Assembly (NCBI GenBank): GCA_965263335.1
Contig: CBDHHE010000009.1
Span: 28,645-92,644, forward strand
Length of the DNA: 64,000 nt
DNA from: Thermohalobaculum sp.
GTDB lineage: Bacteria; Pseudomonadota; Alphaproteobacteria; Rhodobacterales; Rhodobacteraceae
Direction of reading: 5' to 3'
Shown here: piece by piece, positions 18,895 to 21,668 of the stretch
Layout: each line of letters starts with the position of its first letter
How positions within the stretch are numbered: position 1 is the stretch's first letter
The notes under the pieces: model-generated
What the model saw: only the letters and a program-made list of their open reading frames with translations
Told to the model about the DNA's origin: nothing
Databases searched by the model: none
Translations under genes and position numbers: made by a program

Positions 18895-19497
18895 TCAGTC
18901 GTCCCGGATCAGGGCGCCCGGGAGGCTTTCGAAGACGGCGCGGACTGTGTCCAGTTCGACCTCGGCTGTTTTTGCGATCTGGTTCGCATTGTCCACCGAA
19001 ATCGTGCAGGCGGGCTTCTGGCGGCCCTTGGCAATCAGCTTGTATTTGAGCTGGCCGGGCCAGTCCTGTCCTTCGACATGCGGCAGGATCTGATGCGGAT
19101 CGACGACCGCAACGCAGGGCCAGGGCGGCAGGGTGATTTGGGCGGGCCGAATGTGGAGAAACCGGCAATCATCCAGATCAGCCTTGCTGAAATCGCAGTT
19201 GATCGTCAGGTTCTCGTGCGGTTTGTGCCAGTCACCCCAGGTGATCCCCGTGAAACGGCCTTCGAACCGGACGTTTTCGAAACTGGCGCGGCTGAATTCC
19301 TTCTTGGTGAGCTTCTTTTTCTGAATCCATGCACCGCCCACCATGTGCAGCCCGGCAACGACGATGTCCCGAGACTGCGCGCTGACGGTCACCTCGCAAT
19401 CCTCGAGCACCAGATCGGGGCCGAGGTTGTTGAAGTCATCGCCACTCAGGGTGATCGCTTCGCCCACCCGTTTGGTCGCATTGGCTGTGAAGGCCAT
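18895..19497 (-). CDS. Putative immunity protein with pentapeptide-like beta-helix segments
   Basis: 200 aa. ATG is coupled to the upstream stop (TGATG at 19495-19499). Segments LGPDLVLEDC, FSRASFENVRFEGRF, CDFSKADLDDCRF and LPPWPC. Confidence 0.6.
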   Translation of the reverse strand: MAFTANATKRVGEAITLSGDDFNNLGPDLVLEDCEVTVSAQSRDIVVAGLHMVGGAWIQKKKLTKKEFSRASFENVRFEGRFTGITWGDWHKPHENLTINCDFSKADLDDCRFLHIRPAQITLPPWPCVAVVDPHQILPHVEGQDWPGQLKYKLIAKGRQKPACTISVDNANQIAKTAEVELDTVRAVFESLPGALIRDD

Positions 19498-21668
19498 CAG
19501 AACGTAATCATCCGGAACAATTCTTCCCCCTCTCGCCGGGCATGCCGGTCGATGTTGGACGCGGTGCCTGACATGAAGTCGTATTGCAATCCGGTTTCGG
19601 TATCAATGAAATCAAGCCCCTGCCCCGGACGGCGGTTGGCGATGCCGGCCTCGGTCATCAGTTCGCGGATCTCGGTTTCGACCCAGCGACCCCGCGCCTG
19701 CTGTTCGAGGATGTTGGCAAGGTAACCTCTGCCTTCATCTCGTGCGCGGGCGATGGCGGCCACTTCGTTTTCTGTCAGGTTGAGGTCCGGATCCCAGCGG
19801 GCCGCGGCATCATCGGCAAAGCCCTGGATGCGATCTCCGACCGGGTCAGTGGCGGGCACGTCATCCAGACTGCGCCCGGGCGGTATGTGCCAGGTCTGAT
19901 CGCCGCTCCGGACCACGAAGTGATCGATCTGTCCGCTGGGGCCACGGTAGCTGCCCACGATCTCGGCATCGGGGCGGCCCGCGAGTGCAGCCTGCTGCCG
20001 TTCCGCCACCACGCCGGTCGTGCGGGGTTGTGGATCAGGCGTTGGAACGCCGTCCATATGGCGGGTAAATTGCGCGAGCGGATCGGCGACGATGTCATCA
20101 GCGACGCGGCCACCCGTGCCCGCTGCCGCCTCCAGCACATCATCGGCCACCCGCGCCCCGCGCAGCCCCCAACCTGCTATCGCTGCGGCAATAGCAACGT
20201 CTTCAGGCCCGGGCACAAAGAGGCTCGCCAGCCCCACTGCAGCCATCGTTCCCCGATAGTCCATTGCGTCGCTGATATGTTCACCCAGCGTCTCGCGGAT
20301 CACATCGGGATAGCCGTCAAAGGGGATCTCTGCCGTGCTGGGCCGCTGAGGCGAGAGCAGTCCGGGGATATCGACGTGCGCGCCAGTCCTAAGATCCATC
20401 TGATCGAGTTGCGTCGGATCAATCAGCGCCTGAAACTGGCGCAGGGCCGCCTGACCGGCGGGATGTGCTGCAAGCTCGCCCTGCACCACACGCGCCAGAT
20501 CCGTGATCGGCTCACCTCCCGACACAACGCTCAGGACACCGGCATGATCGCCTGTGCGTCCGGCATGGAGCGCGTCGCCCAATTGCGTGACCGCATAAAG
20601 CCGCATCTCAGCGGCGAGTTCCGGCTGCCCCTGCGCTTCGAGGTCGGCCACGATGCCATCGAGGTTCGCTGCCAGGTGCGGGTTATTCTGGAAGCCGGGA
20701 TGGTCAACCAGCTCCGTCGTCGCCAGATCAGGACTGCGCCCGTAAGGCGTCTGGGCCGCCCGGTGCGCAGGGTCCGCCGACCCGCCACTGCCCCAGGCAT
20801 TGGCCGCATCGGTAAAGGCGACCGCGCGCTGGACGGCCTCCGAGCCAAGCGCGCCGCCTTCTGCACCCAATGCTTCAATATCAGCCCGGCCGAAGCCTGC
20901 GCCCTCAAGGGCTATGATCGCGCCGTTGTTGAGCTGGGCCACGCCGTCGACCCCGCCCACGAGATGGGCCATGTTGAGCGCGTTCTGAGCCTGAAATTCG
21001 AGGGTGCGGCGCTCACCAGCCACAGCCGCTTCGGCGGCGGCCCGTGCGGCGGCGGCGTCAAACTGAGTTTGGACCCGTTCGGTAAAGCCGGGCAAGACAC
21101 CCGGAACCGTATCGAAGCGTGGCACGAACGCTTCCTGCGCGGCGAAAACCTCGGCCTCCACCAATGCGTCAAGCTCAGCCAGCCCGACAGCGGCCGCCTC
21201 AAAGTCGGCCTGCGCATCGGCCAAGATCTCGGTCTGCGTGGCTTCGGTCAGGGGCGCGCCAAGAACAAAATCGGCGCCGGGCGTGTTGCCGACAACCGGA
21301 GAGACTGGTGTCACTACATCCGCAAGCGGCTCTACCTCAAGATCGACGTCGGCGGGAGCGGCCTGGGCCAGTTCCAGCGTTGGACCGGTTTCAATGCCCG
21401 GCCCGTCAATGGCTGTGCCGTGGCCGTTCCGGGTTTCAAACGCATCGCGCGTTGTCCGGCCTTCGGCTTCGATGCGCGCCTGACTGGCCGCGCGTTCCGC
21501 GTCCGTCGGTTCTGAATGGGGATCCAGTTCGGCTTCGGTTTCGGCCTCGACCTGACCTCCACCGTTCAAATCTCCCTGAGCGGAATCGCTAATCGACGTG
21601 TCGTCACGTGCATCTGCCCCGTGCGTGCCACGATCTGCGACATCCGTCGCGCCTTCAACATCCGACAT
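19497..21668 (-). CDS. Putative polymorphic toxin (acidic/Ala-rich N-terminus, pre-toxin TM segment, C-terminal nuclease-like domain)
   Basis: 723 aa. Hydrophobic AAVGLASLFVPGPEDVAIAAAIAG segment, then a C-terminal ~150 aa ending RGRWVE..GLDFID..QYDFMSGTASNIDRHARR..FRMITF. Confidence 0.6.
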   Translation of the reverse strand: MSDVEGATDVADRGTHGADARDDTSISDSAQGDLNGGGQVEAETEAELDPHSEPTDAERAASQARIEAEGRTTRDAFETRNGHGTAIDGPGIETGPTLELAQAAPADVDLEVEPLADVVTPVSPVVGNTPGADFVLGAPLTEATQTEILADAQADFEAAAVGLAELDALVEAEVFAAQEAFVPRFDTVPGVLPGFTERVQTQFDAAAARAAAEAAVAGERRTLEFQAQNALNMAHLVGGVDGVAQLNNGAIIALEGAGFGRADIEALGAEGGALGSEAVQRAVAFTDAANAWGSGGSADPAHRAAQTPYGRSPDLATTELVDHPGFQNNPHLAANLDGIVADLEAQGQPELAAEMRLYAVTQLGDALHAGRTGDHAGVLSVVSGGEPITDLARVVQGELAAHPAGQAALRQFQALIDPTQLDQMDLRTGAHVDIPGLLSPQRPSTAEIPFDGYPDVIRETLGEHISDAMDYRGTMAAVGLASLFVPGPEDVAIAAAIAGWGLRGARVADDVLEAAAGTGGRVADDIVADPLAQFTRHMDGVPTPDPQPRTTGVVAERQQAALAGRPDAEIVGSYRGPSGQIDHFVVRSGDQTWHIPPGRSLDDVPATDPVGDRIQGFADDAAARWDPDLNLTENEVAAIARARDEGRGYLANILEQQARGRWVETEIRELMTEAGIANRRPGQGLDFIDTETGLQYDFMSGTASNIDRHARREGEELFRMITF

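Follow-up and report, generated by a model that had tools for sequence, protein, structure and literature searches.

The analysis of a 64,000-nucleotide stretch of a Thermohalobaculum sp. genome (Rhodobacteraceae; contig C9, 97.9 kilobases), referred to here as the window, reveals two adjoining genes that very likely form a polymorphic toxin-immunity cassette. The first, P0001 (19497..21668, minus strand; read from its open reading frame (ORF) and translation), encodes a protein of 723 amino acids (aa) with a predicted orphan carrier and C-terminal toxin, and the second, P0002 (18895..19497, minus strand), encodes a 200-aa protein assigned as the cognate immunity protein from homologues that lie downstream of the same C-terminal domain elsewhere. 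The genes meet in a TGATG stop/start overlap (19495..19499, minus strand), where base 19497 is common to the P0001 stop TGA (19499-19497) and the P0002 start ATG (19497-19495); the minus-strand junction reads ...acgttcTGATGgcc... (also ...ACGTTC TGATG GCC...). This arrangement suggests translational coupling, and the one-base overlap recurs in the gene coordinates at the locus of the homologue P0004 (L008). The two ORFs and their overlap, as described in an earlier sequence-only reading of the window, are thereby confirmed, and the peptide segments it quoted for P0001 are all present. Three features of polymorphic toxin systems (in the sense of Zhang/Aravind 2012) that are open to testing in sequence were found, namely a variable C-terminus on a shared N-terminus, unrelated scaffolds for one toxin domain, and a downstream immunity gene that co-varies with it; a recognisable N-terminal secretion or trafficking domain, a further such feature, was not found in Pfam, NCBIfam or PHROG.

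The C-terminal toxin domain (aa 576-723, 148 aa; 19500..19943, minus strand) was delimited by profile search, conservation and an AlphaFold2 (AF2) model. A homologue search with full-length P0001, which covered 5.8 billion proteins, returned six homologues (P0003-P0008), and P0008, which starts with a lipoprotein signal, shares with P0001 just the last ~150 aa. When a profile of the C-terminal domain was searched against 1.84 billion cluster representatives, 142 protein clusters were matched, 54 of them at E<1e-30, and full-length domain matches were always placed at the extreme C-terminus of host proteins ranging from 179 to 7371 aa. The long matched proteins bear RHS/PAAR/DUF6531, eCIS_core (DUF4157), PT-HINT or transglutaminase domains, and P0025 opens with an AARxxDxxxH motif and continues in hydrophobic segments, an N-terminus that we take to be like those of prePAAR effectors. 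The sequence-only reading had proposed looking for this domain on unrelated N-termini, and these scaffolds, together with the SitA5 escort proteins described below, bear the proposal out. No Pfam or NCBIfam family covers the region, and the putative toxin domain is an undescribed family, absent from both collections.

This distribution is further resolved by a scan for related loci, which took one genome per species and was queried with alignment A2 (alignment A4 being too diverse). The scan yielded 25 loci with the C-terminal domain (L011-L035), of which 21 belong to named myxobacteria (Pyxidicoccus, Hyalangium, Corallococcus, Myxococcus, and Myxococcaceae or Archangiaceae bins), two to metagenome bins tagged 'uncultured delta proteobacterium' or Archangiaceae-like, and two to Ralstonia. 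The myxobacterial carriers, together with P0008, score 240-292 bits with the NCBIfam model NF050093 (SitA5_escort), whose cut-off is 160; the likeness to myxobacterial Sit toxins, which had earlier been put forward, was thus correct. The Ralstonia carriers are 1541-aa PAAR-Rhs proteins, and on the R. solanacearum megaplasmid (CP023017) the genes run in the order VgrG, DcrB/DUF1795 (Eag-type), PAAR-Rhs with the C-terminal domain, and immunity gene. A tblastn search against plasmids gave matches in Ralstonia that covered the C-terminal domain alone.

The immunity partner travels with the domain. In all 25 loci an immunity-homologue ORF of 197-213 aa lies 0-27 nucleotides (nt) after the toxin stop, and these downstream ORFs match the P0002-family profile at E 1e-52 to 4e-84. 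The gene after P0008 (P0011, locus L001) gives a full-length alignment with P0002 (E 7e-20, ~25% identity), and P0004, the closest carrier homologue, lies on a repABC-type plasmid fragment (L008) with the same overlapping immunity partner. Conservation of the downstream gene beside the C-terminal domain, which the earlier reading had named as a check, is therefore seen in 25/25 loci and additionally at L001 and L008. Six-frame scans of the fetched loci never found the C-terminal domain without an immunity gene, and the sole immunity gene among them with no toxin domain nearby is P0010 (L003:6001-6561), an orphan whose low-GC island holds a TIR-domain protein, an integrase and a transposase in a genome of 44% guanine-plus-cytosine (GC) content.

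The N-terminal ~505-510 aa of P0001 form the carrier, which has six known members. It starts with an acidic low-complexity region (aa 1-125; 21294..21668, minus strand) with an isoelectric point (pI) of 4.05, 29 Asp plus Glu against 7 Arg, and no Lys, and within this otherwise disordered region the motif SIS(D/E)(S/E)xQxxL(N/D)GG (aa 25-37; 21558-21596, minus strand) is conserved among P0001, P0003 and P0004. An Ala-rich core follows (aa 126-470; 20259..21293, minus strand), which aligns with P0003-P0007 and has motifs that include VGNTPGADFVLGAPL, PELAAEMRLYAVTQLGDA and GYPDVIRET, and it leads into a hydrophobic helix-PGPED-helix hairpin (aa 473-503; 20160..20252, minus strand), which was recognised by hydropathy and is conserved in P0004-P0007. 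A hydrophobic pre-toxin-like segment had been claimed for P0001, and it is present here as GTMAAVGLASLFVPGPEDVAIAAAIAGWGLRG (aa 472-503), within which 11-mer hydropathy reaches its maximum for P0001 (Kyte-Doolittle 2.26). The hairpin is the last block common to all carriers, and the sequences diverge after ~aa 506. The linker or pre-toxin region (aa 504-575; 19944..20159, minus strand) is conserved only among carriers with this C-terminal type (alignment A1), and differs in P0006 and P0007 (...PIPDAPVAR..GTxEHKLNRW).

Exchange of the C-terminus on this carrier is seen in P0006 (L007) and P0007 (L010), which share the carrier at 554-605 bits by hidden Markov model (HMM) but carry another C-terminal domain, unrelated to the P0001 type (hhalign of A4 against A9, probability 2.8%); the genes that follow them are unrelated to P0002 and to each other. 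An invariant C-terminus, which would have spoken against the original proposal, is thus not what this N-terminus carries. P0006 is frameshifted just past the hairpin (L007:10001-15764), with the other frame running into a different toxin domain, and downstream at L007 lie four tandem ~215-aa paralogues and an orphan toxin C-terminal fragment, an arrangement typical of polymorphic-toxin loci. The same locus has Tn7-like tniA/tniB/tniQ and a Cas3_HD gene as neighbours, next to IS21 and Mu transposases. P0007 as called (L010:2752-4821) has an alanine-dehydrogenase N-terminus (PF05222, PF01262) fused to the carrier from ~aa 158, which probably reflects truncation, rearrangement or a gene-call artefact. 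On the plasmid fragment of P0004, a 567-aa ORF and an overlapping 151-aa ORF, neither with a Pfam match, lie upstream (L008:3028-5183) and look like a second candidate toxin-immunity pair.

The carrier is rare. None of 400 other genera of the family has it, this is the only genome among 41 of the genus with the toxin, and scans of metagenomes, viral contigs and plasmids gave no further carriers. A profile word search for more carriers gave P0003 only, because Ala-rich words filled the candidate list. The carrier shows no relation to the SitA5 escort (hhalign probability 0.5%). The view that a Sit-type module had moved onto a different carrier holds, since the carrier is separate, swappable and unrelated to that escort, and P0001 has no lipobox and no SitA5 escort domain.

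Comparison with the known systems places the window pair more closely. In the myxobacterial SitA5/SitI systems, polymorphic lipoprotein toxins reach other cells through TraAB outer-membrane exchange (Vassallo et al. 2017, PMC5562445; Vassallo et al. 2021, PMC8546572); SitA5 is modular and depends on ExbB for entry, and the C-terminal domain of P0001 is not named in the SitA5 literature examined (PMC8546572). The SitA5/SitI loci resemble the window pair in a homologous C-terminal toxin (37-50% identity; P0008, L011-L035), a homologous immunity protein and the same order of carrier, toxin and immunity gene. While SitA proteins have a type II signal with a lipobox Cys and SitA5 has the escort domain NF050093, P0001 has an acidic N-terminus (MSDVEGATDV...), zero Cys and no NCBIfam match. 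Because it has neither lipobox nor escort domain, P0001 is not a SitA protein, and given that its host is a member of the Rhodobacteraceae and not a myxobacterium, delivery by outer-membrane exchange is not expected. To our knowledge, the TraA/TraB machinery is not to be expected outside Myxococcota. The PAAR-Rhs effectors of type VI secretion systems (T6SS) that are served by Eag (DUF1795) chaperones share with the window pair the same families of toxin and downstream immunity protein, but P0001 is unlike them in that it lacks PAAR, Rhs/YD repeats, a prePAAR or transmembrane region, an Eag gene and a vgrG link. As no PAAR, MIX, FIX or Rhs domain was found in P0001, it is, on domain content, not a recognisable effector of the Rhs, PAAR, MIX or FIX kinds. 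The window pair appears instead to borrow the toxin-immunity module of SitA5, Rhs and extracellular contractile injection system (eCIS) proteins.

An intracellular toxin-antitoxin, addiction or abortive-infection module, in which P0001 never leaves the cell and serves replicon stabilisation or phage defence, would accord with the tight gene coupling, with the repABC-type plasmid fragment that carries P0004, with the orphan immunity gene in the TIR/integrase island of L003 and with the lack of a detected secretion signal. This explanation is nevertheless very improbable: the C-terminal domain otherwise occurs on delivery scaffolds (Rhs/PAAR, eCIS, SitA5 lipoproteins, PT-HINT), the carrier swaps C-terminal domains together with immunity genes, the immunity arrays and orphan toxin fragment are hallmarks of interbacterial systems, and a conserved N-terminal extension of 570 aa is foreign to type II toxin-antitoxin toxins.

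Regarding the activity of the toxin, the AF2 model of the domain (49 homologues) reached a predicted local distance difference test (pLDDT) score of 93.7, and shows a sheet of three strands at its N-terminus, then a bundle of helices, and finally a long helix that leads into strand-strand-strand-helix-strand. The secondary-structure order in model numbering (H89-114, E118-119, E128-129, E136-140, H144-153, E159-163) is compatible with an alpha-beta-beta-beta-alpha-beta core. Across the family D608, D686, H709, R712 and R719 are invariant, W593, Q615, Y696 and N705 are near-invariant, and position 697 is always D or E; D686 stands before strand 2 and D697 in strand 3. The predicted core, on which the conserved D, D/E, H, R, R, N and Y residues would lie, is compatible with that of Tox-REase PD-(D/E)xK toxin domains, as are the invariant D686 and the acidic residue at 697; from these domains P0001 differs in the replacement of Lys by Met/Leu and in its invariant His and two invariant Arg. 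Tox-REase families of polymorphic toxin systems were reportedly described by Zhang and co-workers in 2012. P0001 has no Pfam match to any Tox-REase or other toxin family, searching PDB sequences with a profile of the C-terminal alignment returned nothing, and the Foldseek matches, which are not significant, include NhoI, DpnI, Hjc and influenza PA-N. The toxin is thus modelled as probably a nucleic-acid-targeting enzyme, and a PD-(D/E)xK-like nuclease in particular is possible, though somewhat short of an even chance. The proposal of such a nuclease made in the sequence-only reading is compatible with the topology and the Asp/acidic pair, but is unproven, given that P0001 lacks the canonical Lys and that neither sequence nor fold comparison gave a significant match; a metal-independent RNase could be served just as well by the His/Arg/Arg/Tyr set.

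P0002 is laid out as an N-terminal beta-rich repeat region (aa ~1-132) followed by a small C-terminal alpha/beta domain, and its AF2 model is likewise confident (pLDDT 93.4). All of its top eight Foldseek matches are pentapeptide-repeat proteins (QnrB1, AlbG, designed pentapeptide-repeat variants, MfpA and a Clostridium pentapeptide-repeat protein), with EfsQnr at rank 13, and the matches are weak (E 0.018-0.1, template modelling scores 0.15-0.33). At the profile level P0002 scores 16.9 bits against PF00805, under the cut-off of 20.2, while 10 of the 21 P0002-family members match Pentapeptide families at E<=0.01 (best E 3.5e-6, PF13599), and one myxobacterial immunity homologue matches Qnr models far under their cut-offs. 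A short, irregular beta-helix of pentapeptide type, the fold of which is a right-handed quadrilateral beta-helix, is plausible as a model of P0002; the pentapeptide-like character ascribed to the partner is weakly reflected in its structural matches and in the wider family, but falls short of the cut-off in the score of P0002 itself. Structure prediction, suggested at the outset as a check, gave confident models for the toxin domain and for P0002, but no significant fold match for the toxin and only these weak ones for the immunity protein. Qnr, MfpA, AlbG and McbG, which protect against topoisomerase poisons, resemble P0002 through the top Foldseek matches and the sub-threshold Pentapeptide and Qnr HMM scores; they are unlike it in that P0002 has just ~130 aa of irregular repeats joined to an unrelated alpha/beta domain and scores below the cut-offs. 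Its gene context indicates that P0002 would be a toxin-specific immunity protein and not a gyrase protector.

For delivery, T6SS cargo is the leading candidate route, which we hold tentatively. The genome contains one T6SS cluster on contig C1 (TagH, ClpV, TssG, TssF, ImpE, TssC, TssB, TssA) that looks complete, with TssC at 431 bits and with the only VgrG and the only PAAR of the genome, all on C1. TssC is present in 22/41 genomes of the genus and the toxin in one, so that co-occurrence of the T6SS and the toxin is uninformative. Beside tssA (C1:1376777-1380975, L049:14777-18975) there are a 922-aa CHAT-domain protein and a DUF5649-repeat protein. Since carriers with other C-terminal domains exist, the determinant of export or entry would lie in the N-terminal carrier and not in the C-terminus.

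The second candidate route is release as a soluble colicin- or pyocin-like bacteriocin, in which the complex is freed by lysis or vesicles and the N-terminus and core provide translocation and receptor binding through co-opted envelope proteins of the target, with no injection apparatus. Nuclease colicins share a three-part layout of this kind, and P0001 has a disordered N-terminus, a helical middle and a putative C-terminal enzyme with an adjacent immunity gene, as well as a composition like that of extracellular proteins and T6SS spike and adaptor genes that are unlinked to it. Entry of SitA5 toxins that bear this C-terminal domain requires ExbB (PMC8546572), and the module is therefore compatible with energised import. 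Even so, this route is rather improbable, given that Pfam shows no colicin, pyocin or translocation domain in P0001, that no lysis gene stands beside the pair and no alpha-proteobacterial LexA box upstream of it, and that a conserved TonB/TolB box is not evident, the DVVTPV of P0001 not being kept in P0004.

Several other possibilities were considered and rejected. The genome has no VirB4, which removes a type IV secretion route. Export through a double-glycine leader and a peptidase-containing ABC transporter (PCAT), as the LNGG motif might suggest, fails because the genome lacks a C39 peptidase in a search where controls scored, and because the motif lacks a hydrophobic residue at position -7. 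A type I secretion route via a C-terminal signal fails as well, since carriers with other C-terminal domains end differently and repeats-in-toxin (RTX) repeats are absent. As for SOS control, no GTTC-N7-GTTC box lies upstream, and the window as a whole has no more matches to it than chance would give.

The composition of P0001 bears on export from another side. The protein has 0 Lys and 0 Cys in 723 aa, 48 Arg and a pI of ~4.2, and P0002 has 6.5% Lys; among the 1809 ORFs of at least 400 aa in the same genome the median Lys content is 2.2% and six have no Lys at all. All six carrier homologues are Lys-depleted, down to C-terminal domains with 0-2 Lys each, where 48 homologues mounted on other carriers have a median of 8. 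Other Lys-poor, Cys-free, acidic proteins of the genome carry GGxGxD RTX repeats and look like exoproteins, as with the two at C1:4976583-4980707 and C1:4067200-4068834. Export of the toxin is supported by this match in composition with RTX-type exoproteins; Lys avoidance may mark the exported proteins of this organism, and a functional role for it is possible. Within the window, an 809-aa acidic (pI 4.05) helical ORF at ~50300-52744 (minus strand; C9:78944-81388) also has no Lys, Cys or signal peptide.

Lys depletion, present in all six carrier homologues including their C-terminal domains, is also what a trans-kingdom toxin might display, one directed against an algal or seagrass host that, once inside the eukaryotic cytosol, escapes ubiquitin-dependent degradation for want of Lys, with an immunity gene that just shields the producer. 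The Lys-poor A chains of toxins that translocate from the endoplasmic reticulum are an established precedent, and near-identical sequence is present in macroalgae and seagrass metagenomes. Set against this, the known settings of this C-terminal family (SitA5, Rhs-T6SS) are interbacterial, Lys depletion is common to RTX-type exoproteins and may simply mark extracellular proteins, and no eukaryote-targeting domain was found in P0001. A trans-kingdom role is accordingly the least probable of the explanations weighed here.

The P0001 start is the first ATG in the open frame, its Met is shared by P0003 and P0004, and a putative ribosome-binding site AAGGA can be read 8-12 nt before it (21676..21680, minus strand). 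Downstream of the pair lie PhnD (Phosphonate-bd, 6e-41), PhnC and PhnE, and upstream a divergent 255-aa gene without a Pfam match, then a GSDH-type dehydrogenase and cytochrome c; of the flanks as first described, the phn genes stand, while the 'SH3-like' label of the 255-aa gene finds no backing in Pfam. P0001 is single-copy in its own genome, and GC content at the locus is unremarkable. By comparison of gene order, the pair sits at a synteny breakpoint, since the adjacency of the 255-aa gene and GSDH (window 21739-23868) is kept in several congeners and the toxin/phn side differs in every relative examined; owing to this variability no clean insertion scar can be defined. A RepC search of contig C9 gave no match, in a run where the positive control also failed to score.

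In the mechanism that we propose, P0001 would be a modular protein, with an acidic disordered N-terminus, an Ala-rich core with its hydrophobic hairpin, a linker and the 148-aa C-terminal toxin, whose target, most likely nucleic acid, would lie in the cytoplasm of a bacterial competitor. P0002 would bind and block the toxin inside the producer, and its putative beta-helix may occupy a nucleic-acid-binding surface, perhaps by mimicking nucleic acid. Several observations weigh against parts of this account. No vgrG, PAAR, hcp or adaptor gene is present on the toxin contig C9, and the carrier has no Pfam, NCBIfam (E<=1) or PHROG match and no signal peptide or lipobox. For the toxin, the Lys of (D/E)xK is absent, the residue two positions past 697 being Met in P0001 and Leu in most homologues and not conserved at 80%, and Foldseek gave no significant match, with best E values of 0.6 in the PDB and 0.2 in BFVD. 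The beta-helix assignment of P0002 rests on Foldseek matches at E 0.02-0.1 and on sub-threshold HMM matches, and among sequencing runs no RNA data for this organism turned up, only metagenome contigs.

A more far-reaching interpretation would take the ~505-aa Lys- and Cys-free carrier as an unrecognised delivery or cell-entry domain and a new route of export or import in marine Rhodobacteraceae, with selection on Lys reaching into the toxin domain, a toxin fold not in the PDB and a nucleic-acid-mimicking beta-helix as the immunity protein; we consider this rather unlikely. Were the carrier an ordinary T6SS cargo effector, the cassette would be a useful but routine addition to effector catalogues. 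Such findings nonetheless underscore the mobility of one toxin-immunity module, which would have moved among at least four unrelated scaffolds (SitA5 lipoproteins, PAAR-Rhs proteins, eCIS cargo and the orphan carrier) spanning Myxococcota, Betaproteobacteria and Alphaproteobacteria. The toxin family, with no Pfam or NCBIfam entry or significant PDB relative yet a model at pLDDT 94, offers a defined target for new toxic activity, and a pentapeptide-repeat-like beta-helix would be unusual for an immunity protein. Learning how the carrier leaves one cell and enters another could bring to light a new principle of trafficking in roseobacters, a group prominent among the associates of algae and seagrass.

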